Source of the DNA: a virus
Taxonomy: Duplodnaviria > Caudoviricetes
Direction: 5' to 3' (one strand)
Virus record (IMG/VR): IMGVR_UViG_3300042975_000100
Span: 32,001 to 96,000 of that record
DNA length: 64,000 nt
Part shown: positions 14,098 through 36,346 of the stretch, piece by piece
Layout: every line of letters begins with the position of its first letter
Position numbering within the stretch: the first letter of the stretch is position 1
Made by a program: the position numbers and the translations under genes
The notes under the pieces: generated by a model
Seen by the model: only the letters and a program-made list of their open reading frames with translations
The model's database searches: none
Told to the model about the DNA's origin: nothing

Positions 14098-14217
14098 ATT
14101 TCAGTTATGTATAATATAAGTGAATAAAGAATATGCGACACAGAAAATCCCTCTACCACTCACAATGGTAGAGGAATATCTGCTGTCACGATTCTAGGAA
14201 GAGAGGTGACAATTGTG
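14098..14217 (+). repeat. Conserved promoter-hairpin-RBS leader, copy 1
   Basis: Closely similar to the reverse complement of 36228-36346. Confidence 0.85.
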
Positions 14218-14370
14218 AACCATTCAGAGTTCTTGCCTAATTACATAGACAAGCATGGACCTGGCAAAGATGCAAAGTTTGATTCGAAAGAATCAGCTTT
14301 CGCCAGCATGTGGGATTTAATTTCCGCTGCCCAGGCGGCTTGGAAAAAAGAAATCTCGTTATCCCTGTAA
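14215..14370 (+). CDS. 51-aa minigene (MNHSEFLPNY...EISLSL), absent from the ORF track
   Basis: GTG start 6 nt after gaggtg; open to TAA; terminator at about 14400-14432. Confidence 0.65.
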   Translation: MNHSEFLPNYIDKHGPGKDAKFDSKESAFASMWDLISAAQAAWKKEISLSL

Positions 14371-14567
14371 GACGCTTACTTAGATAATTGAGATTTGAAA
14401 AGAAGGGAGCCGAAGCAACTCCTTTCTTTTTTATTCAATATGTATATCTTATTATTTTTTCTTAATCGTAGCCAACCCTGTGCTAATTTTACTGTTTAAA
14501 CATAAAAATAATCTACGGTAGTAGAAAACTAAATAGGCCTATTTAAAATATAAAGGAGGAAAATTCA

Positions 14568-14999
14568 ATGTTTATTGAAGGAAAGAATTCTGCTGTTCAG
14601 GTGGAAGGCACCGGTGTTGCCGATGAATCTGAGCTTAGAGGTTATATCTTCGAGAGCGCTGTATCTGCTATGCCGGATGAGGCTCGTAAAGCTTATCTGG
14701 AAAGCGAAGAGTGTAAAGCCGCTGTTGACGAGGGTGTTGTTGGGCGTCGTTCCATTATGCGTCTGAACAAAGCTGATGATCTGACCCGTCGTACGAAACT
14801 TGCTTGCCTGCAGAAAGCAAAGGAAGACAATACGGCAGAGTGGCAGCAGCTGCGTAAAGTTCAGGCTAAACGCAAAGCTCTTCTGGCGAAGATCGCGATG
14901 AAGTATCAGAGTCGTGTACAGCGTGATGCTATTAAGGCTCAGCGTGCTATGCTGAAGGTAACTCCTAATGCATTCACTGCTCCACTGAAGTTTAACTGA
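14568..14999 (+). CDS. Putative head/internal virion protein
   Basis: Late promoter at 14499, strong RBS, N-terminal hydrophobic-X-E-[SG] sites, basic C-terminus. Confidence 0.55.
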   Translation: MFIEGKNSAVQVEGTGVADESELRGYIFESAVSAMPDEARKAYLESEECKAAVDEGVVGRRSIMRLNKADDLTRRTKLACLQKAKEDNTAEWQQLRKVQAKRKALLAKIAMKYQSRVQRDAIKAQRAMLKVTPNAFTAPLKFN

Positions 15000-15225
15000 T
15001 GTGAAGGTGGGGAGGACTTCGGTCCTCCTCTTTCCTTTCGTTAGAATTTTAAGTATTCTTAACATTATGGTAGTGAATACTTTTTTGCCATGAAAGGTAT
15101 ACGCTCCTTAATTTATTATAACCTGATATCCGGGATGGGTCTAGGCTCATCCTGGATACCTGTGCAATTTCGATTTGAAGGATATATTATAGTATTGGTA
15201 AGCAAATATTCTATGGAGGTACAAG

Positions 15226-15555
15226 GTGAAAATAGGTATGACTATTGCTAGCAAGATTGATTCATTTGGATCAAAAGCAAATTTTAAAGAATTCGAGGTG
15301 CATCTTAGAGAAAAAGAAGATGGATATAAGTCTATCTTAGTTGCTGCTAAGACTACGTCAGCAAGAGCATTGATTACCAATGCCAACTCATTGAATGATA
15401 CAGCCTATAAAATGATGGCTGGGGTTATACGTAACATAAAACCCGATGAGAAAAGATTAATCACAATGGCTAGAAATAGCAAGGTGGTATTAGTCCGTGG
15501 AGGATATGAGAAATGTGCGGATTTAATTGACAAATTCGTTACAGCACTATTGTAA
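15226..15555 (+). CDS. Hypothetical protein
   Basis: GTG start after ggagg; early promoter at 15181. Confidence 0.6.
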   Translation: MKIGMTIASKIDSFGSKANFKEFEVHLREKEDGYKSILVAAKTTSARALITNANSLNDTAYKMMAGVIRNIKPDEKRLITMARNSKVVLVRGGYEKCADLIDKFVTALL

Positions 15556-15620
15556 GTTTTGAATAGTATTCCAACTTCTAATTAACCTAATATAGGGATA
15601 ATAACTTAAGGAGGATAATA

Positions 15621-17756
15621 ATGGTTGCATCAAATGAAGTAGTATATTTTATGTATGCAGAATTATTAGAAACTGGTCACATGGCAATTAAGACCAGTGA
15701 GATCAACAGATCCACATGGCAGGATCATTATGATGGTATCATGAATCTCATGAAAGATCATATTGAAACGGAGCAGTTGCAGAGCAGCTTTGTTACTGTT
15801 GACTTTGGTAATGGGGATATTGTAGAGTTGTCTGTAATCGATCTCTATATAAATCTCATTATGTGGTATCCACTTGTATCATTGAATATTCCGATCACCG
15901 GTGAGCATTTGTATTTCAATGAATGCGAAACCCAGGATACGATTAAGAATTTCTTTGATACGTATATCATCGAAAGGTATCGTCAGTATATTGATAACAC
16001 AGTGCTGAACAATATCCTCGACGATGCAGTACATAAGTTGATTGAGACAGATGCATTTGGTATGTATCTGGCTAACACAATCAATTTAAAAGATACGATT
16101 GAACTTATGCAGGCCAATCCTGAGTTCAATAACATTCTTCATACAAGTTTGGCTAATATGCCAATGGAAGATGTTAAAGAGATCGGTATGCAGTTGACTA
16201 ATCGTAGTATTGATATTATCAAAGATGCTAAGAAGTATATTGGTCATGATCACTGTCTGGCTAATAGCTTTAGAGCTCAACAGGGTATCAATATTCGTCA
16301 GTTCAAAGAGTTCCTTTTGAATATTGGTTCCAAACCTAATGGTATGGGTGGTGTTCATCCATCTATTATTGATGGATCTTATGTCGGTGGAGCACTGAAC
16401 AGCATCCTGGCTCAGTTCATTGATTCTAGTGCTTCTCGTGTAGCACAGATTCAGACTAAGGGTAACACTGGTGAATCTGGTAAGTTTGCACGAGTATTAG
16501 GCTTAAATAATATCGATAGTGATATTATGCAAGACCCTGACTATGATTGTCACACAAAGAATTTTATCGTACTTCAGATTGTTGATAAGAAGCACTTTGA
16601 AGAGCTGATCGACCGTTACTATAGATTCGATCCTGATGGTATCGATCATCTGATCACTCCTAAGGATACATTCTTGATTGGTAGAATCATTTATCTGAGA
16701 TCTCCGATGACTTGTGCATCTAGTGCACGAGGCCATGGCGTTTGCCATAAATGTTATGGTGAACTTGCTTATACAAATCGGCACATCAAAGTCGGTAAGT
16801 ATGCAGCTGAGAAGTTATCTGCAGAGATTACTCAGCGACAGTTGTCGGCAAAGCATCTGCTTGAAACCATCATTAAGAAATTAACTTGGTTTGGTGGGTG
16901 GGATAGATTCCTTGCTGTAAATATGAATATCATTCAGCTTAGCAAAGAAGCTATCATCAAGAAGAATACATTCCTTATCATAGATCCAGAGTCGATCGAT
17001 TATGTGAATGAGGATGATTATGATACTGATGGCGACATCAGCACTACAGATGAATATAATGAGTATATCACTGAGTGCCGTGTTGAAACCCCTGAAGGAG
17101 AATCAGTAATCATTGGTACTGAGAATAAGGATAAACTTTATCTCAGTAATGAACTTAAGAGTTATATGACTCATTTCGGTAAAAGAACAGAGGATGGACT
17201 TATCTCTATCGATCTGTTCCATATCTATAATGAGAATGATGAGTTCAGCTTCTTCCTGCTCGATCTGGACAATAACGAGCTTAGTAAGACCCTTGATGAT
17301 ATCAGAAATCTCATCGATCTTAAACCTGTAGTGCAGTCTCATAATAAAGACAGTATTCTGCAGGAGATGCTTAGACTCGTAATCGAAGGTAAACTTCATA
17401 TCATGTCTGTGCATCTTGAGATGCTTCTTATGGATCAGATCAGAGACGCTGATAATGTATTGGAAAAACCTGATTGGAGTAAGAAGAATGCTCCGTATCA
17501 GCTTCTGACGCTGAATCAGTCTCTTCTCAAGAATCCGAGCGTTACAGTAACGTTACTTTATCAGTATTTGAGCAAGGTACTTTACAATCCGTTGACGTTT
17601 AAGAAACATGCTCCATCCAGACTTGATCTGTTCTTCATGAAACAACCTCAGCAGTATCTCTCTAATCAGAGCAATATTGCTGAAACAAAACCAGTCAACA
17701 CCGGAAAGACTAGGGTAATCACGAAGTATAGAGTTCCTGGAGAGCCAGATTGCTAA
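15621..17756 (+). CDS. Phage RNA polymerase beta'-like subunit (C-terminal part)
   Basis: Bridge-helix KGNTGESG, LRSPMTC...VCHKCYG Zn site, trigger loop TQRQLSAKH. Confidence 0.9.
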   Translation: MVASNEVVYFMYAELLETGHMAIKTSEINRSTWQDHYDGIMNLMKDHIETEQLQSSFVTVDFGNGDIVELSVIDLYINLIMWYPLVSLNIPITGEHLYFNECETQDTIKNFFDTYIIERYRQYIDNTVLNNILDDAVHKLIETDAFGMYLANTINLKDTIELMQANPEFNNILHTSLANMPMEDVKEIGMQLTNRSIDIIKDAKKYIGHDHCLANSFRAQQGINIRQFKEFLLNIGSKPNGMGGVHPSIIDGSYVGGALNSILAQFIDSSASRVAQIQTKGNTGESGKFARVLGLNNIDSDIMQDPDYDCHTKNFIVLQIVDKKHFEELIDRYYRFDPDGIDHLITPKDTFLIGRIIYLRSPMTCASSARGHGVCHKCYGELAYTNRHIKVGKYAAEKLSAEITQRQLSAKHLLETIIKKLTWFGGWDRFLAVNMNIIQLSKEAIIKKNTFLIIDPESIDYVNEDDYDTDGDISTTDEYNEYITECRVETPEGESVIIGTENKDKLYLSNELKSYMTHFGKRTEDGLISIDLFHIYNENDEFSFFLLDLDNNELSKTLDDIRNLIDLKPVVQSHNKDSILQEMLRLVIEGKLHIMSVHLEMLLMDQIRDADNVLEKPDWSKKNAPYQLLTLNQSLLKNPSVTVTLLYQYLSKVLYNPLTFKKHAPSRLDLFFMKQPQQYLSNQSNIAETKPVNTGKTRVITKYRVPGEPDC

Positions 17757-17880
17757 TCTATATGTAAGAGATATTAAGGCTGCTCATCCGGGCAGCCTTT
17801 TTATTTTTTCTGACATTTCAATAAAAATGATGGGTATCTTATCCATCCTCTACCTTTATACAAGCAAAGGGGAAATGAAC

Positions 17881-18234
17881 ATGGAAGAACAGCAGAAAAC
17901 GCTAGGATATTACATGTCGCTTGTCTACCCAACTAGGTTCATAGAACTTAATGATGGTGGATTTAAAGCTATGCATCCGATGTTACATGGTTGCTCTGTA
18001 ACTGGAACTACCATCACTAACTGTCTCGAAGAGTTGAAGAAGACTCGACGACTATGGATGATAAAAGCCATGGAGGAACATATGGATATTCCTAAACCAG
18101 ACGATTATCCATATCTGTATTTTAGATATGTGCATGTGTATTCTGAAGACGGAATTATGCTGTATTCGGTTCATATCTTCTTAGATGGATTCAAATCTAA
18201 GAAGAAAAATAAGAAGAAGAAAAAGGTATCTTAA
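17881..18234 (+). CDS. hicB: HicB-family antitoxin-like protein (orphan)
   Basis: YYMSLVY...GGFKAMHPMLHGCSVTG.T...L...W...E...IPKP matches the HicB N-terminal domain pattern. Confidence 0.7.
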   Translation: MEEQQKTLGYYMSLVYPTRFIELNDGGFKAMHPMLHGCSVTGTTITNCLEELKKTRRLWMIKAMEEHMDIPKPDDYPYLYFRYVHVYSEDGIMLYSVHIFLDGFKSKKKNKKKKKVS

Positions 18235-18240
18235 AAGGAG

Positions 18241-18789
18241 TTGTTTACATTGTTCGATAAGGTTTCTCCAAAAAGAAATGCTGTCACCACTATGGATGTA
18301 TACGAGATTGCTAAAGACACGGATGATCAGGCTGTAGTCGATTATCTTAAGCAGGGAAATACGAGTTTCTCTATCGTTCGTTTTCATTTTGGTGAGGCCT
18401 ATTTGTTTGCCCATATCAAAGAAGCTGCAGACCTTGAGTACATCAAGAAGATTGCGGACTTTATCCATGGTACGAATGGCAATATCTTCCTGTATGAAGC
18501 TACTGTTCTTGGCTACATTTCCAAGCAGTCTGGCATTACCTTCAAATTGTCTATCGACGATGATTTGGAATACGAGCGTAAAGAGTTCGGAATTGATTCT
18601 TTTGTCGCTGAACAGGAGCCTGAAGACGTTATCAAAGTTTGCAATGAGATCAATGAAATCAAACCTAAGTTTGATATGCGTACGTCTCTTGCAGTGCGTC
18701 TGTATCGTCCGGAATCTATTGAGTATGATTTTGCTGCTAAAGCTGAAATCATGTTCAAGCGTGTTGACGGCGAAGTAGTTAAACAGTAA
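18241..18789 (+). CDS. Hypothetical protein
   Basis: 182-aa ORF followed by a terminator; start uncertain. Confidence 0.6.
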   Translation: MFTLFDKVSPKRNAVTTMDVYEIAKDTDDQAVVDYLKQGNTSFSIVRFHFGEAYLFAHIKEAADLEYIKKIADFIHGTNGNIFLYEATVLGYISKQSGITFKLSIDDDLEYERKEFGIDSFVAEQEPEDVIKVCNEINEIKPKFDMRTSLAVRLYRPESIEYDFAAKAEIMFKRVDGEVVKQ

Positions 18790-18873
18790 AGTATCAATAT
18801 GGAGCAGCCTTATACGGGCTGCTCTTATACTTTTTGATTGGCCCTAAAACACCATAATGTGAGGTGTTGATAA

Positions 18874-20427
18874 ATGCAGAAGCATAAATTAGAAGTTAAG
18901 CACACTTGTATTAAGATAAATAACTATGAACTAGGAGATCTTCCCAGTACAGAGAAGTTTTTCTCCATATGGGACCCTGTAAGATTTCAAGCATTTCCGA
19001 AAGGAATAAAATACGATCAAGAAACAAAGACTCTATATCTGCCTAGAGGAGCTAGCATCCCTAGGTTAGAGAAAGATTTAGGGGTAAATGCATTTATAGA
19101 TCAGAGCCATGATCCAGTACAAAGGGTAAATCCTATTATGCTCAGATATATGCCTAGAGATGATATCCAAAAACAGGGTATTCAATTTCTTCTTGGAAAA
19201 GGAGAGTATGAGTATACCGCTAGAAAGTCTCAGCTATCTGTAAATCTAGGGCCTGGGGATGGAAAGACATATCTCTCTGTTGCAGCAGCTGCATATTATG
19301 GAGTTCGTATGGCTATGATCACTTCTGCTGGTGGTTGGATAGAGCAGTGGGCAGAGCGTATCCAAGAGTATACTGATACAACGAGAGAAGAGATCTATAT
19401 AATCAAAGGTAAACCATCTATAGTTATGCTACTGAATGGAGTTCATGATATATCGAAGTACAAATTCGTACTTTGCTCTCATAATACATTAAAGTCGTAT
19501 GGCGATAAGAATGGATGGGATAAGATCGGAGAACTATTCAAGATGATGGGTATCGGGTTAAAGATATATGATGAGGCTCATCTATACTTCGATAACATTT
19601 GTTCTATAGATTTCGCTACAGATACTCTGAAGACTATATATCTTACTGCCACCCCAGCCAGAAGTGATAGAAACGAAGATAAAATATATCAAGCTGCATT
19701 CAGTAGTGTTCCGGGATTAGATTTGTTTGACGATGAGCGAGATCCTAGAACACACTATGTAGCTTTCCATTACAGTAGTAATCCATCTCCTATTGACGTT
19801 CAACGGTGCAGAGGAGCATATGGATTCTTGGCAATCAAGTATATAGATTACGTAGTCAAACGCCCTAACTTCTATGAACTATTGTTCATACTATTGGAGA
19901 TTGCTAAGACTAAAGGAAAGACTCTTATCTATATAGGCAAGGTGGATGCTATCTATCGAGTATATAATTGGATTATGTACAACTTCCCTGAACTGAATGG
20001 AATGGTTGGAATGTATCATTCTAAGATGGACCCAGAGATAAAGGAAGCTGAAAAGGAAAAGCTTATCATCTTATCTACGATAAAGTCATGTGGAGCGGCT
20101 ACTGATATCAAAGGTCTTCAGCTTACCATCAATCTGGCTAATCCTTTTAGCTCTAATGTAATTGCAAGGCAGACTCTTGGAAGGACTAGAGATAAAGGAA
20201 CTATGTACATAGACGTAGTAGATACAGGATTTGCAACTCTTAGAGGATACTATAAGCATAAGCAAGGAATATTCTCTAAGTATGCTTTAGACTTTAGAGA
20301 TGTCATCTTACGGAAAGACATGCTGCATGAAAAGTACATGCAGATGTTTGCCAATAAGATGGAATGGTATAACAAACTTTACTCTAAGGATTCAGATAAA
20401 AAGAAGAAAGTAATGCATTTAGTGTGA
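18874..20427 (+). CDS. Superfamily 2 DNA helicase (UvsW-like)
   Basis: Walker A PGDGKT, DEAH, TATP and QTLGR motifs. Confidence 0.9.
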   Translation: MQKHKLEVKHTCIKINNYELGDLPSTEKFFSIWDPVRFQAFPKGIKYDQETKTLYLPRGASIPRLEKDLGVNAFIDQSHDPVQRVNPIMLRYMPRDDIQKQGIQFLLGKGEYEYTARKSQLSVNLGPGDGKTYLSVAAAAYYGVRMAMITSAGGWIEQWAERIQEYTDTTREEIYIIKGKPSIVMLLNGVHDISKYKFVLCSHNTLKSYGDKNGWDKIGELFKMMGIGLKIYDEAHLYFDNICSIDFATDTLKTIYLTATPARSDRNEDKIYQAAFSSVPGLDLFDDERDPRTHYVAFHYSSNPSPIDVQRCRGAYGFLAIKYIDYVVKRPNFYELLFILLEIAKTKGKTLIYIGKVDAIYRVYNWIMYNFPELNGMVGMYHSKMDPEIKEAEKEKLIILSTIKSCGAATDIKGLQLTINLANPFSSNVIARQTLGRTRDKGTMYIDVVDTGFATLRGYYKHKQGIFSKYALDFRDVILRKDMLHEKYMQMFANKMEWYNKLYSKDSDKKKKVMHLV

Positions 20428-20537
20428 TATTGCCCGTATCCTATCCAAGGATACGGGATTCCCTTTGTTTAGCGTCAATTCGTTTTTACACAACTTTAAA
20501 GTAATGCAATTACGTTAAATCAAGAAGGTGAAAAAGC

Positions 20538-22809
20538 ATGGCAAACGGTTTTATAACCCCGCCTAGAACACAGCAGCAGATACCTGCACAAGAAATCAGA
20601 ATCTGCTATCAGATGACAACAAGAAACAAATCGTTTCTTGAGATGCATTATTATCTGAAAAAGAAAGGCATTAAAAATAACGCTTTCATGCTTCAGCTAT
20701 TAGATCCAGACTTAGCCGGTATCGACCCACATGATCCGATGCTAAGTAGAACCTATGAAGATGAAGGTACAACGAGAATGCATGTTTAACTTCTGGTATT
20801 ATGTACGAGAGGTTGTTCGTGTTACTCACTCTGGTAGCCCAAAAGGTATACCATTCATGCTTCACAGAGGAAACATGGCAATGTTCTTCTGTATGCTGCA
20901 AAATATCAATACATTTATAGAACTACCGCGTCAGCAGGGTAAAACACTTGGTGCGTGTGTATTCTATTCATGGGCATATAATTTTGGTACTGCTAACTCT
21001 GAGTTACGTTTCATGAATAAGGACTTAGCAGGTTCTAAAGATAACTTGGCCAAAGTCAAAGAGATTATCGGTATGCTACCATCCTATCTTCAGATGACTC
21101 GTGAATACACGATGGTCGGAGATAGAAAGAAGAAAGCTACTGCTAACGTAGAGACTATAGCTCATGTAATCAACCATAATAAGATTAGAACCGTAGCCTC
21201 TGCTAGAAGTAGAAATGCTGCTGGCAATCTGTTACGTGGTAAAACTATTACGTTCTGGTGGATGGACGAGTGGGCATTCATTGGATACAATGATGCCATC
21301 TATTTATCAACATATCCTGCATTGAAAACAGCATTCGATAATGCTAGAGCAGCTAATAAACCATATGGTATTCTTATTACAACCACTCCTGGTATACTGA
21401 GTACAACTGAGGGTAAGTATGCATTTGAAATGAAAGAAGATGCATCTGAGTTCTCTGAGACTTGGTATGATAAAGCCCCTATGCAGATTAGATCTATACT
21501 TGATGCTAATCAGAAGAGTGATTTCGTATATATAAGATTCAGCTACAAGCAGTTGGGTCGAGACGAGCAATGGTTCTTCGAGATCTGTAAAGGTTTGCAG
21601 TGGAAGATGCGAGACATCAGACGAGAGGTCTTACTTGAGTGGACTGATATGCCTGAGAATTGCCCATTCTCCCCTGAGGATCTTGAGGATATTGAGAAGA
21701 AGGTCAATGAGCCTATCAATCGTATTGAGTTCTTTGATCGTTATATCTTAAATGTGTATAAGCCAATTCCTCTTAGATCTGACTATGTTCCTAAGTATCC
21801 GCCAATCATTGGTGTCGACGTTTCTGGTGGTTATAGACGCGATGCATCTGCAATCACCGTTATAGATTCTAGAACAACTGAAGTTATCGCCGATTTCAAT
21901 TCTAACCATATCTCTCCGATAGATCTTGCTAGATTGGTACTGGATATAACTTGTAGATTCTATCCTAATGCAGTAATCAACGTAGAGCGAAACGGCGGAT
22001 TCGGTGCTTCAGTAATAGCTAAGCTCAAAGAGTCCAAAGTCAAAAAGAATCTGTATTTCGAGATGAAAGACCGTGTTGTAGAAGAGCAGACCGATGGCAT
22101 TAGAATTCGTAAGAAGAAGATGCTTACAAAGGTATTTGGCTTGGATTCTACTAAAGACGTTCGTGAACTCTTAATAGAGATTCTTAGAGAGCGCGTTCAG
22201 TATCATAAAGACAAGTTCAACTCTCCTACGATACTGAATGAAATGAAGAGAATGGAGATCAAAAGAACCGGTAAGGTTGAGCACTCCGATAACTCTCACG
22301 ATGACCAGGTGTTCTCTTACCTGATGGCTCTCTACGTATGGTATGAAGGTAAAAACCTTAGAGAGAATTTCCATATTGAGAAGCAGAGTATTAAGGTAGA
22401 AGAGGGCGTTGATGATACAATCACGGCTCTTGACCAGAAATATACGTCTGTTATCGATGAGGTCGTAGGACCTGCTGCAACTCCTGAGGAAGATGCAAGG
22501 AATGAAGAAGTCAATCAGATGCTGTCAGAGCTGAAGAAAGGACAAGGCATTCTGTACAATGAGTTTGCAAAGCGTAGAGACGAGGAAGAGGATCGTATGT
22601 TTAAGATGCTCTTACGCTCTAAGCCAGTTTTGCAGTCTTATTGCAAAGAGCATAACATCTCAGAAGAAGAAGTTAGAGAAGAAGTCTTTGGTGGAGAAAC
22701 CGACATCCCAGATTCTGTCTTCACTGGATTCAATTCCGATGTAGAGATGGATCAAGCGAACAAACTGAAGCGTAATTTTAACATGCTTAACTTCCCAACT
22801 GGAAGATAA
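20538..22809 (+). CDS. terL: Terminase large subunit, interrupted by a 1-nt frameshift near 20750
   Basis: N-terminal TxNxSFL...GIKNN.FML.L.DP.L.G.DP in the first frame; ECxxN.WY..RE, PRQQGKT, MDEWAF, TTPG, nuclease GVDVSGG, ERN and HDD in the second frame. Confidence 0.9.
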
Positions 22810-23068
22810 GACAGTAATACTCCCACTACCCGTTATTGGGTAGTGGGATATTGCATGCATTTGCCCCTCTGGTAATACCAGAGGAGCGAATACAGATTCG
22901 AAATGAAACCAACGTAGGGAAACACCCAATCAACCGAAATCAAACAGATGAAGCATATATCTCTATTTGATTTACTTCAATGTTTCAATTATATATCATA
23001 ATACTGTAAGAGGATATATTGATATATCATTCTTAACAAAAGCCAGTACATGGCGAGGAGGAGATCAC

Positions 23069-25837: not shown

Positions 25838-25852
25838 GGGAGTAATAAAAAC

Positions 25853-26860: not shown

Positions 26861-26875
26861 AGGAGGTTTACAGAA

Positions 26876-28348
26876 ATGGATGATATCACAAACTTTCCAC
26901 TGACCCTTATAGATGTGGAAACGCGGCCTAATCTGAGACTATTGCTTAGATTCAGGTATTCAGATCCAAGCCACGATTATAATGTCATGCTTGAGAATGG
27001 CGTGCTGTACGATGTAATTTTCTTGCATCGTGGAGTTCTCAAAAAAGTAGTAGGAAGAATCATCGGTGTATCAAAAGTCCATAATGTCGAGACAGTTGAG
27101 TATCCTCAGCGTCCTACGGAATGGCTCATTAGAGTTGATGCATCATCTGCTAATAGTTCATTAGTAGTAGATATCCTCAGTGGTCAGATTAGATTGCTTC
27201 GTAAGTATACTCCTCATATGGATGAGGACAATACCATTGCATCTGGAACGACTACTGGCGGGATTACCCACGGTGATGTTTATGATGTAACAATCAAGAA
27301 TCCTACCACTGATGATAAAGGCAACACTAATGGCGGAGATATTGACGATGGTAAAGTAGGTCCAAAGCCTACACCAGATCCTACAGATCCGACTAAAACC
27401 ATCGTCACGCCTATCTCTCCGATCACAATCACCGAAGGTGGTTGTACAGCTGGTAAGAATAATTCCGGTAATGATGTCGTTGTTGTAAATGGCAATACTA
27501 CCGGAGGTACTATCACTGGTGGTAAGTTTGTATCTGGCAATATCTTGTCTCATGATACAGATGAGAATGGTAACTATACCCATTGCGTTATCAGCTATGC
27601 TGTAATTAGTAATAGCACTATCACTGGTGGTAAGACTACTGGTGGCTCAGTTATTGAACCTAAGTTCACTAACGTAACTGTTACAGGTGGTACTAGAACT
27701 GGTACCGACATGGTTACACATGGCGCAACTGTTGTTGGAGATATCGGAACTGGTGGGTATACTGAAGGAGGCGTCAATCACGGTGGGTCGGCTACTGGCG
27801 AAATCAATGGTAATCCTTATACTATTAGTGGAGGTACCTCTACTGGTGGTAAGTGTACCGGCTGTACTGTTATTGGTGGCGTTGTATCCGGTGGAACTGT
27901 CGTGGGTGGCGCTATTATTAATGCCACTATTACTGGCGGTACTGCTACTGGTGGTACTACAATTAACGCTGACATTACTGTCGACGGAGGTACGATATCG
28001 CCTGGCACTCACATCGATACCGTTAATCCTATCAGCGCTGTCGTTGTACCTACTGCCGTAGATCCGCTGACTCCAAACACTCCGGGTGGTAGTTCTACTG
28101 CTCCAACAGATCCTGTTATCGGGCCTACACATGTAACGCCTGGAACATCTACCAGACCTATTGGGCCTAATACCCCATATAACCCAATTGATCCATCCAA
28201 TCCTAATAATCCTAACCCTCCTACTTACCCTAACGGTAATAGCACCGAAGCGTATTGGGATGGTCTTACCATTTATGGTAGTGATGAAGGTATTGGATCA
28301 AATATTAAAACCTGGGACGGCAGACCTGGAGCCTGGGTAGAGAAATAA
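26876..28348 (+). CDS. Gly/Thr-rich repeat protein (putative beta-solenoid virion appendage) with Pro-rich tail
   Basis: More than 20 GG-containing repeats such as TGGTTTGG; PNNPNPP C-terminal region. Confidence 0.7.
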   Translation: MDDITNFPLTLIDVETRPNLRLLLRFRYSDPSHDYNVMLENGVLYDVIFLHRGVLKKVVGRIIGVSKVHNVETVEYPQRPTEWLIRVDASSANSSLVVDILSGQIRLLRKYTPHMDEDNTIASGTTTGGITHGDVYDVTIKNPTTDDKGNTNGGDIDDGKVGPKPTPDPTDPTKTIVTPISPITITEGGCTAGKNNSGNDVVVVNGNTTGGTITGGKFVSGNILSHDTDENGNYTHCVISYAVISNSTITGGKTTGGSVIEPKFTNVTVTGGTRTGTDMVTHGATVVGDIGTGGYTEGGVNHGGSATGEINGNPYTISGGTSTGGKCTGCTVIGGVVSGGTVVGGAIINATITGGTATGGTTINADITVDGGTISPGTHIDTVNPISAVVVPTAVDPLTPNTPGGSSTAPTDPVIGPTHVTPGTSTRPIGPNTPYNPIDPSNPNNPNPPTYPNGNSTEAYWDGLTIYGSDEGIGSNIKTWDGRPGAWVEK

Positions 28349-28364
28349 AGTAAGAAGGTGCTGT

Positions 28365-28553
28365 ATGATCAAGTTCACTGATGACCTACAAAATTCTAAA
28401 CTCAGGGTCAATGCGGAACGACTTGTATCGGCTCTAAGCAATATGATGAAAGAACATCCTGAGCTTAGAATGAAAATAGAATCCATGGATAGAGAATCGT
28501 GCAGAAACATTTCAGTTTGCTTTCAAATCACAGATACGGAAGAAGAGAATTAA
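28365..28553 (+). CDS. Small hypothetical protein
   Basis: RBS aaggtg; terminator downstream. Confidence 0.5.
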   Translation: MIKFTDDLQNSKLRVNAERLVSALSNMMKEHPELRMKIESMDRESCRNISVCFQITDTEEEN

Positions 28554-28618
28554 AAGTATTGGCTACAGCATAATCGCTGTAGCCTATATTTTTGCTTGTA
28601 AAAAAGGAGGAAGAATCA

Positions 28619-29428
28619 ATGGAAATAAAAGATGCAGAAGGTCTTACTCAATCAATACGAAAGAAATTTGGAATGCATGCAGATGAATCAACAGTTCTTA
28701 GTGCATTTGCTAATAATCCAACCAAGTATAAGGATGAGGTTACATACATCGCTAAGTATGGATTAGTTGATGAAGAGGGAAATAAAGGAGAGTTTATTGA
28801 AGAGTGCATGCCTCATTGGATCAATAAGAATGGTGCATTTGCATTTATGCTCTCGGTAACATATGCTAAGCATCATTGCTTAGGTTCTGACTATAAGGAA
28901 AGTGGCTATTTTACTACGTTCCTTCAGGACTCTATGAAGTTTGGAGTCAATAAGAAAAAGAGCAAAGATGTACAGGAGCAGATCATGAAATATATGAATT
29001 TCTGTGTACGCAATGGCATAGACTTCAATCAGAAGAATGGTGTACTTATGCGAGCTACCACTGGCCATCTCTATAAAGATGTGGTAAAGGCGATGGTCAA
29101 ACTGCATAAGATTCCACACAATGAGCGTATAGACATTGTTCTGGAGAGATTGATTGCTAATAAGGCATGGGATCTTGCAGAAGACTTTATCCGCATGGGG
29201 GCTAAACTCTATACGAATAATGCTCATCTTGATTCGTATCTTGTTGAGGACGAAGAACTTCTTAAAGATGATCATATATCATTTTGTGCAAGATATGTCA
29301 AATCGGTTATCGATGAAAAAGCAAAAGAGCTTGCTAGCGTAGCTCCAGCTCAGACATTCATCGTAGATCCGAAGACATTCGCAATGAAAAGAAAGAATTC
29401 AACTTTACCACCTTTGACAAATAGGTAA
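28619..29428 (+). CDS. Hypothetical protein (possible ankyrin-like helical repeats)
   Basis: RBS aaggagg; ...NGIDFN...MGAKL-type segments. Confidence 0.55.
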   Translation: MEIKDAEGLTQSIRKKFGMHADESTVLSAFANNPTKYKDEVTYIAKYGLVDEEGNKGEFIEECMPHWINKNGAFAFMLSVTYAKHHCLGSDYKESGYFTTFLQDSMKFGVNKKKSKDVQEQIMKYMNFCVRNGIDFNQKNGVLMRATTGHLYKDVVKAMVKLHKIPHNERIDIVLERLIANKAWDLAEDFIRMGAKLYTNNAHLDSYLVEDEELLKDDHISFCARYVKSVIDEKAKELASVAPAQTFIVDPKTFAMKRKNSTLPPLTNR

Positions 29429-29441
29429 GAGGTGATAGATC

Positions 29442-30170
29442 ATGGCTAAATGGCCTACGTTTTTAAAGAAAGATGGAGACAAAGTTCTCTTCAATGCACC
29501 AGGAGAGCTTTTATTTTTTCTTCCTGAGAAGTTATTCGATCTTAGATTAGCTTTCCCAGCCGGAGACTATCAGAATGTATTTGGTCTGCTGAACTATTGT
29601 TTGGTAGATGCTAATGGTAAGAAAGGGAAACTTAAACTGCTTAAGCTCCCTACAAGATTTCTTACTCAGCCGTATAAGATTGATAAGATTAAAGAAGCAA
29701 AGCTTATTTCCACTTCTAAAGTTCAGGATTACAGGGTATTCCGCTTTAAGAAGGGAGATGCTGTTATCGTAGAAACACGAGTTCCTATGGATATCAAGAA
29801 TGTAGAGGACTTCATTAACCTTATCCTTATCACTGGTAATATGACAAACAGTGTTCCATACGATAAGATTCAGGATATGTTCATGAAGAATATGGACATC
29901 AATGGCAATAACTATAACGTTAGTGCACAGATGTTTGGAATCATATTCTCAGAGTGCTGCAGAGCATTGAATGATCCATCTAAGCCGTATCGACTCAGTA
30001 ATACGAATGACTTAACAGCATACGTATTGATGAGTGTAAAGAAGGTATCTCGACTCATCAGTTCTTATTCTGCATTTACATCAGAGAACTTTATGGAATC
30101 TATTACTCATGCTATGATGAATGATAAGAAGATAGATCAGCCATTAGAGCGTGTAATGACAGGAGATTGA
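29442..30170 (+). CDS. Putative RNA polymerase beta' extreme C-terminal fragment
   Basis: GIIFSECCR...SVKKVSRLISSYSAFTSENF...PLERVMTG resembles the beta' C-terminal conserved region. Confidence 0.5.
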   Translation: MAKWPTFLKKDGDKVLFNAPGELLFFLPEKLFDLRLAFPAGDYQNVFGLLNYCLVDANGKKGKLKLLKLPTRFLTQPYKIDKIKEAKLISTSKVQDYRVFRFKKGDAVIVETRVPMDIKNVEDFINLILITGNMTNSVPYDKIQDMFMKNMDINGNNYNVSAQMFGIIFSECCRALNDPSKPYRLSNTNDLTAYVLMSVKKVSRLISSYSAFTSENFMESITHAMMNDKKIDQPLERVMTGD

Positions 30171-30176
30171 TTCAAA

Positions 30177-30683
30177 ATGCCAAATCCAACTTCGGGAATC
30201 AAAGTCAAATTTGATGAAGAACCTACCAATAAGCCTAAAGATAAAACTCCATACAAAGGACTTTCTGGTTGGCTCGATTCAATGCCAAAGGAAGAAAGAA
30301 CTGGATTCGCAAGATCTACATTCGCGCCGTTGAACAACCTTCTTAAGAATGCAGCTAAGAAAGATGACTTACCTAAACCAGATGCTATACTAAAGAAAAA
30401 GTTTATGCTCAATGCTTCTGATAAGATCGTGTTAGATCCAGATCAGAAATATGCATTGGTATATGATGAGCATGGCAACAGAAAAGGAATCATCGAAGGA
30501 AAGTTAGCTGGATTGATCGAATGTAAGCTCAAGAAGGTTAACGATAAAAACTCAGCGGTATATGCTAAGGATGGTTATCTTAAAGGAATAATCACTGGGC
30601 CTGGTAGTGACCTTAGCAAATATAGCTTAGATCCTTTAGCAGCTAAGCCAAAGATCGAGGCTAAGCTCGAAAAAATCAAATAA
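30177..30683 (+). CDS. Hypothetical protein
   Basis: ORF with an internal duplicated VY..xG..KGII.G segment. Confidence 0.55.
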   Translation: MPNPTSGIKVKFDEEPTNKPKDKTPYKGLSGWLDSMPKEERTGFARSTFAPLNNLLKNAAKKDDLPKPDAILKKKFMLNASDKIVLDPDQKYALVYDEHGNRKGIIEGKLAGLIECKLKKVNDKNSAVYAKDGYLKGIITGPGSDLSKYSLDPLAAKPKIEAKLEKIK

Positions 30684-30697
30684 GAAAAGTACATTTA

Positions 30698-30736
30698 TAT
30701 CCCTCTACCTAATGCTGGTAGAGGGATTTTCTGTGC
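30698..30736 (+). terminator. Terminator of the CCCTCTAC...GTAGAGGG hairpin family
   Basis: atccctctacc-taatgct-ggtagagggat-tttctgtg; relatives at 14149, 36271 and 45749. Confidence 0.75.
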
Positions 30737-30839
30737 TCGAAAACGTATTAGCTGTAGGGCGTTAAAGCTAACATATCATTAAAGTTACCTTTTCTAGGGG
30801 AACAAATAAAAAATGAAACCAATAAAGGAGGAAACATAA

Positions 30840-32723
30840 ATGGCTTACGCTCAGACTAAAATCATTTGGGATGACCAATCTGATATCACTCCTATTAGTG
30901 AGACAGTTGAAGATTCCATTGATAGACCGGTCTTGTTCTTCGCCTTTGCTTCAGAAAAAGGTCCAGAAGAATATAAACCGCAGGTAAAAGGTGAAAACTT
31001 CTTCAAGCTTTATGGCTCGAAGCCAAGCTTCACTACTTACGGCCAGCCGTTGCTCGGTGCTGCTGCCTGCATCAATGCTGGCGGTCTTGCTGATTGCAAA
31101 CGTGTTGTCGCTGACGATGCTACGCTGGCAAATATTGCCGTTGTTGCAAAAGTCAAGAAAATTGCCCCGCAGGCTACCAACTCGAATGGTCAGGCTCTGT
31201 GGGAGGATGGACAGGGTGGGGTTACAACCGATCGTAACATTACTGGAAAACCGGCTCCGGTTCAGAAATGCCAGATCGAATACGAGCTTCGTGCTGTAAA
31301 CCTTGCAGGTAACTCTGTTAAGGCTATGGCAAAGGCTTTCCTTGGTGATGCTACTACCACTCATACTCTTGGTGCTGATGAAGAGTATCCGCTGTTCTTC
31401 TTGGCCGATAATGGCCGTGGACTCTCTGCAAAGAGATTCAAGATTGTATCCGATAGCTCCCAGACTCGTCCGATGGACTACGTGAAGTACATCATGACTA
31501 TTTCTGAGAATGGTACTGATCTTGAGCATTATGCATTCACGATCAATCCGGATATCATCGAGAGCGGCAAGAACCTGTCATTGCAGAGCACGATTCGTCA
31601 GTATGCAATGCAGATTCGTGGCGAAATCTTTGAAGATCAGATTGATGCATTCATTGAGAACGTTGCTTACATCGCCGGTATCCCGTATGAAACGTTCAAG
31701 TATTCAGATGCTCTGTTTGGCTCTGACCTGTATGGTAAAGCTTATGACACCATCGTCATGGCTGGTTCTGTTCAGCTCGATACGTCGGCTGGTATTGCTC
31801 TTGTAAATGGTAGCAATGGCGATTTCGCTAATGCTCCGTTGAGTGCTCTTACTTATAGCTCTCAGCTTCTGAAGGCTTTCAACGGCACTGATGGTGATGA
31901 GATCTATGATACGGATAACTTCCGTATTGATGCTGTCTTCGACTGCAACTATCCGGCTCCTGTAAAGAGAGCTATTGAGGATCTGGCTGCATTCCGCCAG
32001 GACTTCATGTACTTCCGTGATATGGGTACGGGTCTGGAATCAATCGATGAGATCAAATTCGCTAATATGGATAATCTCAAATCGAAGTTCTGCTCGACTT
32101 ATCATAACTCTTGGGATATCATTGATCCGTATACTCGCAAAGAGATTACGGTTACTGCTACGTACTCCCTTATCGAGAAATTCGTAAAGCATTTCTTGAA
32201 TGGTGTATCTCGTCCGTTCTGCGGCCAGCAGTATGGTGTAACCTGGACGAAAGATGATGTCATTGAAGGCACCGTAAACTTCAACCCGAAGAATACGCCA
32301 GCAATGGATCAGAAGCAGTGGTTCGATGATAATCGTATCAACTATGTAAGCTATTACAATGGCTTGCTCTCCATGGAATCTCAGTACACTTCTCAGGAGC
32401 GTTATACGCAGCTGAGCTGGTTGAGCAATGTACTTAACGTACAGAGCATCATCCGCGAAATTCGTGTACAGTGCCCGAAGAATCGGTATAAATATATCGA
32501 TACAAAGGGTCTGGCTAACTACCAGAAGGATGTTCAGACGCTGCTCAATAAGCATTCGGCTGATTTCCAGGAGATCTCTCTGGTGTATGCTAAAGATTCG
32601 AATTATGAGAATAACAAGATCTACTACGCATACATCTACGTTCGCTTCAAGAACTTCGTTCAGAGCGAAATCTTCAGAATTACGGCGCTCAAGACGAATG
32701 ACAATACGTCGGCGTCGGTATAA
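30840..32723 (+). CDS. Contractile tail sheath protein
   Basis: 627 aa; SEKGPE, NAGG..KRVV.DDA.LAN, D.NY...VK and C-terminal RINY...SQ.T patterns; late promoter at 30770; followed by the tube gene. Confidence 0.85.
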   Translation: MAYAQTKIIWDDQSDITPISETVEDSIDRPVLFFAFASEKGPEEYKPQVKGENFFKLYGSKPSFTTYGQPLLGAAACINAGGLADCKRVVADDATLANIAVVAKVKKIAPQATNSNGQALWEDGQGGVTTDRNITGKPAPVQKCQIEYELRAVNLAGNSVKAMAKAFLGDATTTHTLGADEEYPLFFLADNGRGLSAKRFKIVSDSSQTRPMDYVKYIMTISENGTDLEHYAFTINPDIIESGKNLSLQSTIRQYAMQIRGEIFEDQIDAFIENVAYIAGIPYETFKYSDALFGSDLYGKAYDTIVMAGSVQLDTSAGIALVNGSNGDFANAPLSALTYSSQLLKAFNGTDGDEIYDTDNFRIDAVFDCNYPAPVKRAIEDLAAFRQDFMYFRDMGTGLESIDEIKFANMDNLKSKFCSTYHNSWDIIDPYTRKEITVTATYSLIEKFVKHFLNGVSRPFCGQQYGVTWTKDDVIEGTVNFNPKNTPAMDQKQWFDDNRINYVSYYNGLLSMESQYTSQERYTQLSWLSNVLNVQSIIREIRVQCPKNRYKYIDTKGLANYQKDVQTLLNKHSADFQEISLVYAKDSNYENNKIYYAYIYVRFKNFVQSEIFRITALKTNDNTSASV

Positions 32724-32741
32724 AGAAAGGGGGAGATTTAA

Positions 32742-33587
32742 ATGGCTGATATTACAGTAGACAACATTTTTGCGAATCAGGTATCACTGCCTGACTTTAC
32801 GAAATATACGCTCGGTCGTGGCGTAACGGATTATACGCAGCTCGCACAGTTCGATATGTACGAGAAAGGTTATCCGTTCATGATAGTTCTCAAGATTCCG
32901 AAGTTTATTGAAAAGCTGGCTACGGCTAACACCGAGTATGCTAAGCTGATCAATGACTACGTTCATGTTCTTGAATATGACTTCCGTGGTCTTGAGGGCC
33001 TGGAGAACATGACTGCTGATACCACCGAGATTACCAATGGTAATACGAAGTTGGATATCATCACGAAGGTTAACTGGGAATCGGCATCTAAGTTCAGCAT
33101 GAAGTATCAGGAGCGCAAAGGCTCTCTGTTCGCTCGTATGCATGAGCTGTACCTCCGTGGTATTAAAGATCCGAAAACGCAGGTTAAACGCTACAACGGT
33201 CTTCTGAAGACTGATGGTTCGTCTATCCTGGATGCTGGTTATGAGAACGAGGTATTCGAATTCCTGTACTTCGTAACTGATAACACGGCTCGTTCTATCG
33301 AGAAAGCATTCCTGCTTACGTCTTGCCAGCTTACTGAGTGTAGCTTTGATCAGTACAATCAGGAGAAGGGTCAGATTGAGTGGCAGGATGTCAACCTCCA
33401 GTTCAATGGCTACTCTATCACGAATCCGTTGGTTACGCAGAAGGCTCAGACCTTCCTTAACTGGATGAATGAAGAGAATCGTGTCATCTTCGAAGAGACT
33501 AAGTTCGCTTATGATTCTCTTACGGATATGCCGAGTGTCGATGAGCTGCCTGGTCCTCAGGTTGCTATGAAGGCAATCACGTACTAA
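32742..33587 (+). CDS. Tail tube protein
   Basis: Directly downstream of the sheath; typical size; YQERKGS...GIKDP pattern. Confidence 0.75.
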   Translation: MADITVDNIFANQVSLPDFTKYTLGRGVTDYTQLAQFDMYEKGYPFMIVLKIPKFIEKLATANTEYAKLINDYVHVLEYDFRGLEGLENMTADTTEITNGNTKLDIITKVNWESASKFSMKYQERKGSLFARMHELYLRGIKDPKTQVKRYNGLLKTDGSSILDAGYENEVFEFLYFVTDNTARSIEKAFLLTSCQLTECSFDQYNQEKGQIEWQDVNLQFNGYSITNPLVTQKAQTFLNWMNEENRVIFEETKFAYDSLTDMPSVDELPGPQVAMKAITY

Positions 33588-33638
33588 CGTGCAAAGAATA
33601 CCCCTGTACTCGTAATGAGTACAGGGATATTTTGTGTC

Positions 33639-35954
33639 TTATTGTTCTTGCTTTTCGTCTTCCTTCTCTTTGACAACCTCCATTTGCACCTCATCAATGA
33701 GTGCCTGCATGTCATCTGCCGGGAAGAACAAACTAGTGTATTTCTTTTTAAGCTCTGCAACAAGTTTAGGTTTGATAAGATCAGCATCCTTAGCATTATC
33801 ACTAACGTACATATTCGTTATTGCTTCTGATATATCATTAGCGCTTGTAAGAATCTGAGTAGTATTCATTGTCATAAGGTAAGTCGGTACATTAGGAACG
33901 TACTCGATTTCCTCATTACTGTCAAACTCTGCATTGTAAATACGAGTAAGAATAGTGCTGAACATCTTCTTTACTAATGCCTGCAGATTATAGATAGTCT
34001 GCAAGAATCTCGTATTCGTCATTGTAAGTCTAGTTGCATAATCGGTAGCCTGATGAGCCTGAATATAATCATATGGAACACCAGTAGATTGAACTGCCAT
34101 TTCCTCAAGAGCATTCATGAGATCTGTCTTGACCTCTACATTCTGCCCAGGAATGGTTTCTACATCTATTGGGGCGTCTCCAGATGGGGATTTAGGAATG
34201 AGTAGATCATTGAACCTACCAAGCATACCAAGAACGTTATTCATCGATTCAATCTGTCTAACGCCAAAGTTAGAACGCTGAATCTGATTGATAGCATTCA
34301 TCAATGTATCTGAGATATTTGTATCTACCATCTGCTTTACATAGTAAACACGCTTATCGTTTCCTCTTGTAAGGATAGAGATTACATTGGAGATGTACAA
34401 GCAGCTATAGAGCTTAGCTGGGAACAAAGCCTTACGAAGAGATGAAATACCACGATGCGTTTCATCATCCTGCTCAAAGAAGCAATGAACCATATCATCT
34501 GGAGGGATGAATGTAATACGCATCTTAGAGATACGTCCTTCTGCATTCATAGTAGAGTTATACTTCAAGATAGCATAGATCTCTTTAGTCAAATCCTGAT
34601 TGGCATTGACGAAAGTCTTATCGATCTTACGTGAAATAGCCATAGCAAGATTCTTAAGCAATCTGGTTTCCTGAGTATCCTGATAGAATGGATCTCTGTT
34701 CTTATCCTTGTATGCGCCACCTGGACGGATACCTCCGATGGTATTAGAGAAAGTAGTCTTCTCAAGATCGAACTTTCTATCGCATTCGATATAGAAATAC
34801 CCAATGCAGATATCATCGATATACAACGGTTTAACCATTGTATGATCAAGAATCTTTACAACACACCCAGGAACCTTGAGTTGCAGTTCTTTGTCATCTC
34901 CATAGCCAGGAGTTTTAAGACCATCCTGCGTTAAGCCATCAAGTTTATAGAAGTTTTCAGAACCCTTCTTGATACTATCATCGATAGAGATATTCTTGGT
35001 AACGTCAGCCTTCTTGCCTTCATTATCTTTCTCAGTCTTGAGAGCTGTTTCGTTGATAGCAAGATTTGCAGCTTCATTAAGAATGCTATTAGCTTTCTTA
35101 TATCCTACCAAAGCAGACTTGATGACACAGCTTTTATCCATCTCTACGATGAAGTTACTCTTACTTGGTTCTACGTTATCAGTGAAGAATCCTTCGTCAA
35201 CCGCATGTACCTCTGTATCTCCACTGGTAGGGTCCATTCCGATCGTAAACGCTTCATTGACTGGTCCTGGATCGCTTACTGAAGCCTCACCTAGGAATCC
35301 AGAAGTAGGACCTAACCCAAATCTTTCATTATCCGACAGTAATCTTTTGATTGCTTTACGGTATGGAACTACATATACAAAGCACTCTCCGAGTTTATCA
35401 GTTTGACGATATACTTTATCGAGAATCAGATCGAGTTTATACTTCTCTTTCATATCTTTGATATTGTTTGCCACACCGATATCTTTTCCAGCAGCAGACT
35501 TAGATCTGATATGAAGTGTCGTGCTTGTAAAGTTATCAGAGCATAATACATGCTCACGACGAGTTGTCAAAGCATCTTCCAGCTTTGGCATATATTTCAG
35601 AATCATTTCGATTTCACGGTCAATGTCTCTTAACCATGAATTCTGGGTATACGTTTGCATTATAGAACTCATGATAGATTCATTCTCTAATGACGCATTG
35701 ATACCTTGTACAACATCCTCATCATTCTGCATGCTGCCAAGTTTAGTTTTCGTCAAAAGAGCAGAAATGTTGGTAGTACCAACATTGCTAATATTATTAC
35801 CTATCAGATTATCTATGCTACGGTGTGCTCTTGTTCTCATGTAGGACAGAGTCTTGCTAACACCAGGATCTGTGTAGTATGTACTACTATACATATCACC
35901 CATGCCAGTGTCAATAGACTGCTTCAGTTTGTCCATATCTTTTTCACTTGCCAT
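33639..35954 (-). CDS. Portal protein (T4 gp20-like)
   Basis: GECFVY, R...KRVYYV, D..IP....G..IDVETIPG and GVP motifs; late promoter at 35979-35990. Confidence 0.8.
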   Translation of the reverse strand: MASEKDMDKLKQSIDTGMGDMYSSTYYTDPGVSKTLSYMRTRAHRSIDNLIGNNISNVGTTNISALLTKTKLGSMQNDEDVVQGINASLENESIMSSIMQTYTQNSWLRDIDREIEMILKYMPKLEDALTTRREHVLCSDNFTSTTLHIRSKSAAGKDIGVANNIKDMKEKYKLDLILDKVYRQTDKLGECFVYVVPYRKAIKRLLSDNERFGLGPTSGFLGEASVSDPGPVNEAFTIGMDPTSGDTEVHAVDEGFFTDNVEPSKSNFIVEMDKSCVIKSALVGYKKANSILNEAANLAINETALKTEKDNEGKKADVTKNISIDDSIKKGSENFYKLDGLTQDGLKTPGYGDDKELQLKVPGCVVKILDHTMVKPLYIDDICIGYFYIECDRKFDLEKTTFSNTIGGIRPGGAYKDKNRDPFYQDTQETRLLKNLAMAISRKIDKTFVNANQDLTKEIYAILKYNSTMNAEGRISKMRITFIPPDDMVHCFFEQDDETHRGISSLRKALFPAKLYSCLYISNVISILTRGNDKRVYYVKQMVDTNISDTLMNAINQIQRSNFGVRQIESMNNVLGMLGRFNDLLIPKSPSGDAPIDVETIPGQNVEVKTDLMNALEEMAVQSTGVPYDYIQAHQATDYATRLTMTNTRFLQTIYNLQALVKKMFSTILTRIYNAEFDSNEEIEYVPNVPTYLMTMNTTQILTSANDISEAITNMYVSDNAKDADLIKPKLVAELKKKYTSLFFPADDMQALIDEVQMEVVKEKEDEKQEQ

Positions 35955-36080
35955 TGCTAATCCTCCCTTGAATAAGTTTATTAAGATGTTCAAGTAGCAT
36001 AAATTGACAAAAAAGAAAGAGGGTTTAGCGGATATAATATCTCGTACCTCTATCTTACCTTGTAAGCAGATGATAAAAAT

Positions 36081-36230
36081 TTACTTGGCTAAGCCAGCGT
36101 AAACATTATCGTAATATGCATTAGCATATTTCTGCATCTCTAGCAAGCGGGTTAGCGGATCGCTAAAGATGGTACTAAAATATGCATCGTTCTTTTGAAC
36201 AAACATATTAAAGTAGTCAGTTCTACTCAC
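36081..36230 (-). CDS. 49-aa minigene (MSRTDYFNMF...YAGLAK), absent from the ORF track
   Basis: GTG start 6 nt after gaggtg; open to TAA; T-rich terminator near 36005-36025. Confidence 0.65.
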   Translation of the reverse strand: MSRTDYFNMFVQKNDAYFSTIFSDPLTRLLEMQKYANAYYDNVYAGLAK

Positions 36231-36346
36231 AATTGTCACCTCTCTTCTTCAGAGTTGTGGCAGCAGATATCCCTCTACCATGCTACGGTAGAGGGGTTTT
36301 CTGTGTCGCACATCCGTTATTCACAGTTATTATATATAACTGAAAT
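36228..36346 (-). repeat. Conserved promoter-hairpin-RBS leader, copy 2
   Basis: Closely similar to 14098-14217. Confidence 0.85.

Follow-up and report, generated by a model that had tools for sequence, protein, structure and literature searches.

Why should two small genes of dissimilar sequence, lying at separate sites and on opposite strands of a phage genome, be preceded by nearly the same leader? The question arises from a stretch of 64,000 nucleotides (hereafter, the window), which corresponds to bases 32001-96000 of the IMG/VR virus record IMGVR_UViG_3300042975_000100 (144,787 bp; CheckV completeness 58%). An earlier note, made from the letters alone, had pointed out two such cassettes, one at 14098-14217 on the plus strand and the other at 36346-36228 on the minus strand. 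Both were found at these positions, and the module shared between them is 84% identical. We think it probable that these cassettes, here called A and B, belong to a set of duplicated, self-contained early units for small proteins, and that their common 5′ module is a cis-regulatory unit maintained by selection. The phage itself encodes a portal protein 28% identical to the portals of Bacillus phages AR9 and PBS1 and has a split multisubunit RNA polymerase beta gene at window 15621-17753. Its gene order of DNA polymerase, small genes, portal and convergent tail sheath is that of AR9 g132-g126. Taken together, these features mark it as an AR9-like (AR9/PBS1-like) jumbo phage. Contigs of the same phage extend to about 259 kb; a portal-based search of viral contigs for related loci gave no match.

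The repeat is clearly above chance, and it is not limited to the two cassettes first noticed. Two core strings, of 24 nt and 20 nt, are each present at exactly two places in the window, whereas 100 shuffles gave an expectation of 0. A search of the record and of contigs from the same lineage found at least four copies per genome. The third full copy, cassette C, lies outside the window at record 110226-109865 on the minus strand and has an ATG start and an ORF (open reading frame) of 59 aa; no other non-coding repeat in the record is as long as its leader repeat. The fourth, cassette X, was found on contigs L102-L104. Here the shared leader precedes a 52-aa ORF that starts with GTG, and the terminator, like the spacer after it, is homologous to its counterpart in cassette A. 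Many metagenome contigs stop within the leader, as is expected of a repeat. The earlier note had allowed that only two copies might exist, which is not the case, and that the ORFs might lack counterparts in relatives. Orthologues of A and B were, however, found at the same syntenic sites in a ~77%-identical relative, whose core genes are 76-81% identical. Proximity to DNA polymerase loci, of which the genome has two, holds for A and B as noted but is not general: cassette C is preceded by a gyrA-like topoisomerase gene and two small ORFs, and cassette X stands between a 147-aa gene and a 2222-aa gene. Beyond the lineage, neither of the two cassettes had a BLASTN match in 50,697 phage records, and exact leader patterns retrieved no leader-carrying relatives from IMG/VR, where a 16-mer gave chance matches only. 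A metagenome scan with GGTAGAGGRATATCTGCTG likewise met only chance matches in unrelated DNA, the lineage's own contigs being masked there.

Each unit consists of an early-promoter variant TATATAAT-N6-G, a 5′ untranslated region (5′UTR) of ~95 nt, a strong ribosome-binding site (RBS), an ORF of 49-59 aa and an intrinsic terminator. The description as a modular expression cassette for small proteins thus fits well, since every unit carries its own promoter, leader, RBS, ORF and terminator. In cassette A, whose repeat begins at record 46082, the upstream segment and promoter occupy 14082..14121 on the plus strand (ATTTCAGTTA, then TGTATAAT at 14108-14115 and a 6-nt spacer). The 5′UTR follows at 14122..14214 with the Shine-Dalgarno sequence AGAGAGGTGA at 14200-14209, and ORF A (GTG start, 51 aa, predicted two-helix protein) is at 14215..14370. 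The unit is closed at 14400..14433 by a terminator with an A-rich arm, a loop and CTCCTTTCTTTTTT (fold -15.2 kcal/mol), and the loop GCCGAAGCAACTCC of this terminator is common to cassette C. Cassette B starts immediately past the stop codon of a 246-aa gene, on the minus strand. Its upstream segment and promoter are at 36323..36356 (ATTTCAGTTA, then TATATAAT at 36336-36329 and the spacer AACTGT), its 5′UTR at 36231..36322, ORF B (GTG start, 49 aa, predicted two-helix protein) at 36081..36230, and its terminator, composed of AAGATAGAGG, a long loop and CCCTCTTTCTTTTTT, at 36009..36056 (fold -14.4 kcal/mol). As the earlier note had seen, the two terminators are alike, with an A-tract, a stem and a T-tract; the sequence similarity of the terminator tails is partial. 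Identity between copies is 82-88% in the leaders and 50-53% in the ORF DNA, the latter being the level of shuffled sequence (49-50%); the similarity was therefore rightly said to end at the start codon. Since the 5′ module and the terminator are both homologous between copies, the entire unit would have been copied, and later selection would have held the regulatory ends in place as the coding part diverged.

The ORFs behave as real genes under purifying selection, as judged from substitution patterns. ORF B is 84% identical to its orthologue with a nonsynonymous rate (dN) of 0.096 and a synonymous rate (dS) of 0.79 (dN/dS 0.12), and it is invariant in 10 metagenome contigs in which its leader varies at five sites. 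For ORF A, dN is 0.32 and dS is saturated. Of the segregating sites in ORF C, 9 are synonymous and 3 are non-synonymous, a count with an ascertainment bias because the loci were fetched by the exact protein. The peptides of A (51 aa) and B (49 aa) had been called unrelated, and for this pair the claim stands: BLASTP gave no alignment, and Smith-Waterman scores against 10000 shuffles gave p=0.65. It does not extend to the whole set. Pairwise BLASTP among the peptides found no alignment even for A vs X, so that shuffle statistics were used instead, and with 10,000 shuffles the pairs A-X (p=2e-4), C-X (p=1.6e-3) and A-C (p=0.05) were separated from B vs any other (p>0.6). A, C and X are thus diverged paralogues that would still be recognizably related, and B would have diverged beyond recognition. 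Translation of three ORFs in all frames showed no convincing cross-frame similarity across cassettes. AlphaFold2 models of the A protein (predicted local distance difference test, pLDDT, 88; helices 3-14 and 25-50) and the B protein (pLDDT 90; helices 3-21 and 25-48) both suggest a two-helix hairpin with the second helix starting from residue 25, a fold so widespread that it is no proof of kinship. Searches of 5.8 billion proteins and 1.84 billion representatives found no homologues outside the lineage, and Pfam, PHROGs and a BFVD fold search gave no usable match for the peptides. Early small proteins of phages are the usual place where host-takeover and anti-defence functions are found, and such a role for these peptides, as proposed in the earlier note, is pure conjecture. 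A type I toxin-antitoxin system was considered and rejected, as the peptides are charged, amphipathic and two-helical and have no long hydrophobic stretch. No antisense promoter of the kind such a system needs was seen by eye, and a match to the SR6 antitoxin (E=0.68) scored 19.6 bits vs a threshold of 55.

What would drive expression of these genes? Early promoters of AR9, used by its virion RNA polymerase, have the form AAATATATATTAT-N6-G(+1), and late ones AACA-N6-TA/G (Lavysh et al., 2017; PMC5312081). In the record analysed here, the most over-represented words are those containing TATATTAT. This 8-mer occurs 39 times, about 25 of them directly upstream of genes as GTTA-TATATTAT-A-N5-G. 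The cassettes read CAGTTA-TATATAAT-A-N5-G-AATAA, with the frame and spacing of the phage's early promoters and a single T>A change from the consensus TATATTAT in all four copies and their variants; the orthologous cassettes of the relative carry TATATGAT and TATACTAT in place of TATATTAT. There is no conserved -35 element, conservation begins about 25 nt upstream of the predicted start, and a scan for sigma-70-type promoters made no call at the promoter sites of cassettes A or B. The cassette promoters share with AR9 early promoters an AT-rich extended motif, the 6-nt spacing to G, the position before genes and the clade, but differ by one conserved base from the early consensus of this phage itself. 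We infer that they belong to the early type recognized by the virion polymerase, of which they would be a variant, with transcription starting at G14122 and G36322, and that the cassettes may be expressed early. After the terminators of A and B, a late-type promoter would serve the next gene. Motifs of the AACA-N6-TA form, matching the AR9 late consensus, lie at 14499..14510 (+), before a 143-aa gene starting at 14568, and at 35979..35990 (-), before the portal gene (ATG 35954); about 30 nt around the former are nearly identical in the relative (contig L109).

Three other features of promoter regions were seen. Among near-identical strains, a (TA)n tract right upstream of TATAAT is polymorphic in length in leaders C and X (L002:1590-1614(-), L045:2881-2907, and around 3010-3030 of L102/L103), and this variation alters the distance to a conserved TTCAGTTA segment. 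A second repeated module, an early promoter with a leader of roughly 40 nt (TATATTAT-atcagt-GATAGAGATA...), is common to three other genes outside the window (record 15453-15518, 110576-110525 and 140276-140211). A further TATATAAT-N6-GAATGA promoter, which has no leader hairpin, lies outside the window at record 111052 (-) and precedes a 106-aa ORF in a mini-cassette array upstream of cassette C.

The most distinctive part of the leader is a hairpin located at about +26 to +56 from the predicted start (14147-14177 in A and 36297-36269 in B). Its stem, CCTCTACC-loop-GGTAGAGG, has six occurrences in the record, and 16 copies are counted when compensatory stem variants (CCCnnTACy) are included, typically followed by ATATTTTGTG. 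Members of this family, CCC-nn-TAC-y / loop / r-GTA-nn-GGG-ATATTTTGTG, lie in the window at 22822-22847, 30701-30725, 33602-33626 and 45749-45773, with 12 more in the record. The exact stem was also counted 17, 13 and 4 times in three IMG/VR relatives; none was found in AR9 or in Listeria phage LPJP1. In G001, a relative of 231 kb with core proteins only 45-50% identical, 15 of the 17 stems stand 2-65 nt past a stop codon, and their 3′ flank is T-rich in the direction of the gene. Two copies in the record, D at window 30701 and F, are oriented as these G001 terminators are. D (30701..30725, +) is an ordinary terminator 19 nt past the stop of a 168-aa gene and upstream of the tail sheath gene. 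The CCCnnTACy stem is the standard intrinsic terminator of this clade. In the leaders, however, the T-run GATTTTCTGTG is on the antisense strand and is identical to the 3′ flank of hairpin D, so that the U-tract feature of an intrinsic terminator is present there. The sense strand has the same stem, but with GAUAUCUGCUG as its 3′ flank and in a position 5′ of the ORF; the sense flank reads GATATCTGCTG. A generic scan called a terminator on the antisense strand only, that is, on the minus strand for A (14177-14147) and on the plus strand for B (36269-36297). Since the T-run and the scan calls both fall on the antisense strand, the core of the leader is a reversed terminator.

The orientation of this palindrome has itself been subject to change. 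Hairpin B has the loop GTAGCAT and its orthologue the exact reverse complement, ATGCTAC, with the inner flanks swapped (36269-36297 vs L111:2938-2966). This is a DNA inversion across the palindrome, which was turned round as a whole during evolution. B_rel, the flipped orthologue, no longer has an unbroken T-run (TTTT to TATTT), as if termination in the sense direction had been selected against. Loops are also the most variable part of the hairpins among near-identical strains. Conserved terminator motifs are known in jumbo phages phiKZ and 201phi2-1 (PMC11512511). There too, terminators form a phage-wide family of conserved sequence and some are promoter-proximal in 5′UTRs; here, the 5′UTR copy differs in being reversed, in having no sense U-tract and in lying within a longer leader common to paralogous small genes.

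The transcribed leader is predicted to be highly structured. Folding z-scores of single sequences are -4.3 to -5.2 vs shuffles, and two alternative folds are predicted. One is a long irregular hairpin at about +7 to +74, which leaves the RBS free (14128-14195 in A, with z = -4.4, and about 36316-36251 in B). In the other, the inner hairpin is accompanied by another, formed over the RBS by pairing of GUCAC-GA-UUCU with AGAG-AG-GUGAC (14184-14211 in A and about 36262-36234 in B). Structure was tested with an alignment of 16 distinct leaders (A7) composed of the four paralogues, population variants and two orthologues. The long hairpin is paired in 91.5% of cells vs 51% or less when slid, and three pairs are changed on both sides, namely columns 14-72 (CG/UA/UG), 23-62 and 9-76, a result equalled by 12 of 500 shuffles. 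Covariation of the leader, which the earlier note had proposed to test, is thus present to some extent, though drawn from few lineages. The RBS-covering hairpin is 97.5% paired in the 16 leaders with one-sided changes only. The alignment supports the long hairpin and is merely compatible with a switch. Leader A is 84.6% identical to its orthologue, vs 62.9% for ORF A, 81% for the RNA polymerase beta gene and 76-81% for core genes, and conservation above that of core genes points to a function of leader A; for B the corresponding values are 75.6% for the leader vs 83.3% for the ORF. The idea of a regulatory leader RNA, also from the earlier note, is therefore partly borne out, by leader conservation at or above core genes in the case of A and by the three covarying pairs. 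Two other candidates were dropped: an apparent covariation (U-A / U.G / C-G) in the basal part of the inner stem, where A_win has a C.A mismatch, and an upstream ORF in the leader, which is present in A and B but absent from C and X. The only Rfam 15 match in the window was a group I intron, and cassette matches in E-value mode were all far below the gathering score. This intron (RF00028, 66 bits; 13208-13584, -) splits a divergent-type DNA polymerase gene with exons at 13492-13986 and 11455-13116.

The leader would act in cis at the RNA level. The reversed terminator hairpin would not terminate sense transcription, because its U-tract is on the other strand, and it would instead be extended into the long irregular hairpin. 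As long as this hairpin is intact, the RBS would be free; once it is cut, melted or bound, its 3′ strand could pair with the RBS and close the site. Translation and mRNA life of all four small proteins would then be under common control. Leaders in which RBS sequestration is opened or closed by processing are familiar from the lambda N leader with RNase III and from the 5′ stabilizer of SP82 in B. subtilis. A long irregular hairpin next to a polypurine RBS and an alternative pairing that covers the RBS are shared with them; there is no sequence relation, and the likeness is a lead only. Such a translational or stability switch is a tentative proposal, which we hold to be possible but doubtful.

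Several observations weigh against this interpretation. The promoter class and the timing depend on likeness to AR9, and one predicted early promoter of AR9 lost its activity through a deviation of a single base, elsewhere in the motif, in the upstream A-run (PMC5312081). The covarying pairs come from few independent lineages, and when 5′ and 3′ segments were swapped between copies, the basal helix was not consistently weakened and the native combinations were not favored. The RBS-sequestering hairpin has no double changes, so that its pairing could reflect conserved sequence alone, and U>C variants in A_L069 and in B weaken it. Leader B, at 75.6% identity to its orthologue, is no more conserved than the neighboring genes. 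Moreover, the dissimilarity of peptide B could mean that its ORF was replaced, not that it diverged, which would favor shuffling.

Shuffling was indeed the analogy first drawn. In T4-type phages, PeSL (promoter-early stem-loop) repeats place a promoter, a stem-loop and a Shine-Dalgarno sequence before ORFans, and they recombine (Arbiol et al., 2010, PMC2839356; Comeau et al., 2014, PMC4122927). By this account the block would be a patch of homology that moves, swaps or deletes small ORFans, with the hairpin as a recombination hot spot. PeSL is the closest analogue: the cassettes likewise repeat a conserved composite block, made up of an early promoter, a terminator-related stem-loop, a Shine-Dalgarno sequence and a start codon, before small ORFans, with signs of recombination at the stem-loop. 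The analogy is apt, but the cassettes are not PeSLs in the strict sense, because their promoter is not sigma-70-like and their stem-loop is in the 5′UTR and reversed. Three of the four defining features are in fact unmatched or open. A repeated block before ORFans is present, in four copies whose ORFs lack homologues outside the lineage. A strong sigma-70-like promoter with -35/-10 boxes is not, nor is a stem-loop between or over the promoter boxes to stop upstream transcription, as the hairpin here is ~26-56 nt past the start. The block, about 135 bp long, has an antisense T-tract and a 5′UTR that is conserved throughout, and its four copies are dispersed, two of them syntenic in a diverged relative. 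Mobility would agree with the lack of relation between peptide B and those of A, C and X, all encoded behind a common leader, with the inversion of the hairpin B loop relative to its orthologue, with the variability of the loops, and with contig k119_25642 (54 kb; L100/L101). In this contig, the upstream flank of X, identified by its 179-aa and 147-aa genes (vs L102-L104), is joined to the leader and ORF of C, and the break is at the 5′ edge of the repeat. However, several contigs break within the leader, and this one may be an assembly chimera. The copies are only four and dispersed, not arrayed in plastic regions, and at 82-88% identity they have not been homogenized recently. A and B keep their syntenic sites beside an AR9-like gene order and show no mobility across the distance to the ~77%-identical relative, so that shuffling of small genes, as suggested in the earlier note, was not borne out, and the conservation of leader A above core genes speaks for a function. 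A role in recombination is therefore unlikely as the main explanation, although it is possible alongside a regulatory one, the two not being mutually exclusive.

The hairpin alone could also be the functional element, and the question is then on which strand and with what partner. If it worked in the sense direction as an attenuator, most transcripts would end at the promoter-proximal hairpin as a ~60-nt 5′UTR small RNA, and a phage factor would permit read-through and hence protein synthesis. The stem is the phage's own terminator stem, 201phi2-1 has terminators just downstream of promoters and produces 5′UTR small RNAs by premature termination (PMC11512511), and the sense 3′ flank of the flipped orthologue B_rel is somewhat more U-rich. 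Yet the flank GAUAUCUGCUG contains no U-run in any of the four copies or their population variants, the generic scan calls only the antisense strand, and the T-run of B_rel was broken after the flip, so that attenuation seems decidedly improbable. The same antisense features would suit an insulator, by which antisense or convergent transcripts would be ended ahead of the cassette promoter and the early genes upstream, the leader being conserved partly for that role. Hairpin D, which stands in terminating orientation 19 nt after a gene, has a 3′ flank identical to the antisense flank GATTTTCTGTG of the leaders, and AR9 does have late antisense promoters (PMC5312081). But the 3′ terminators of the cassettes, with both an A-tract and a T-tract, look bidirectional already; inspection by eye of the antisense strand past the ORFs found no late-type promoter that is conserved, and no opposite-strand genes are aimed at either cassette A or cassette C. 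In B_rel the orientation is flipped, and the conserved parts of the leader outside the hairpin are left unexplained, which makes the insulator very unlikely. Both readings are less likely than that of duplicated units with a selected regulatory module. A further suggestion is that the terminator stem CCCUCUACC/GGUAGAGGG is a sequence-specific site for a phage factor, either an element of the RNA polymerase or a termination or RNA-stability protein. The 5′UTR copy would then be an operator through which translation reports on this factor, in the manner of RegA or coat-protein operators. That the exact stem is kept at 45-50% protein identity hints at sequence-specific recognition, and the palindrome can flip by inversion with its RNA stem unchanged; we regard an operator of this kind as quite unlikely all the same.

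Duplicated early units with a shared, selected 5′ module remain the reading that we favor, and no known result is overturned by it. To our knowledge, almost no post-transcriptional control elements have been described in jumbo phages that have their own multisubunit RNA polymerases. Here, a single leader, built of a reversed terminator and an RBS-covering hairpin, may exert post-transcriptional control over a fast-evolving family of early proteins. The cassettes would offer a compact system for mutational tests and an example of terminator hairpins that are reused and flipped, and the leader may serve as a sequence handle by which such genes can be found in related phages.

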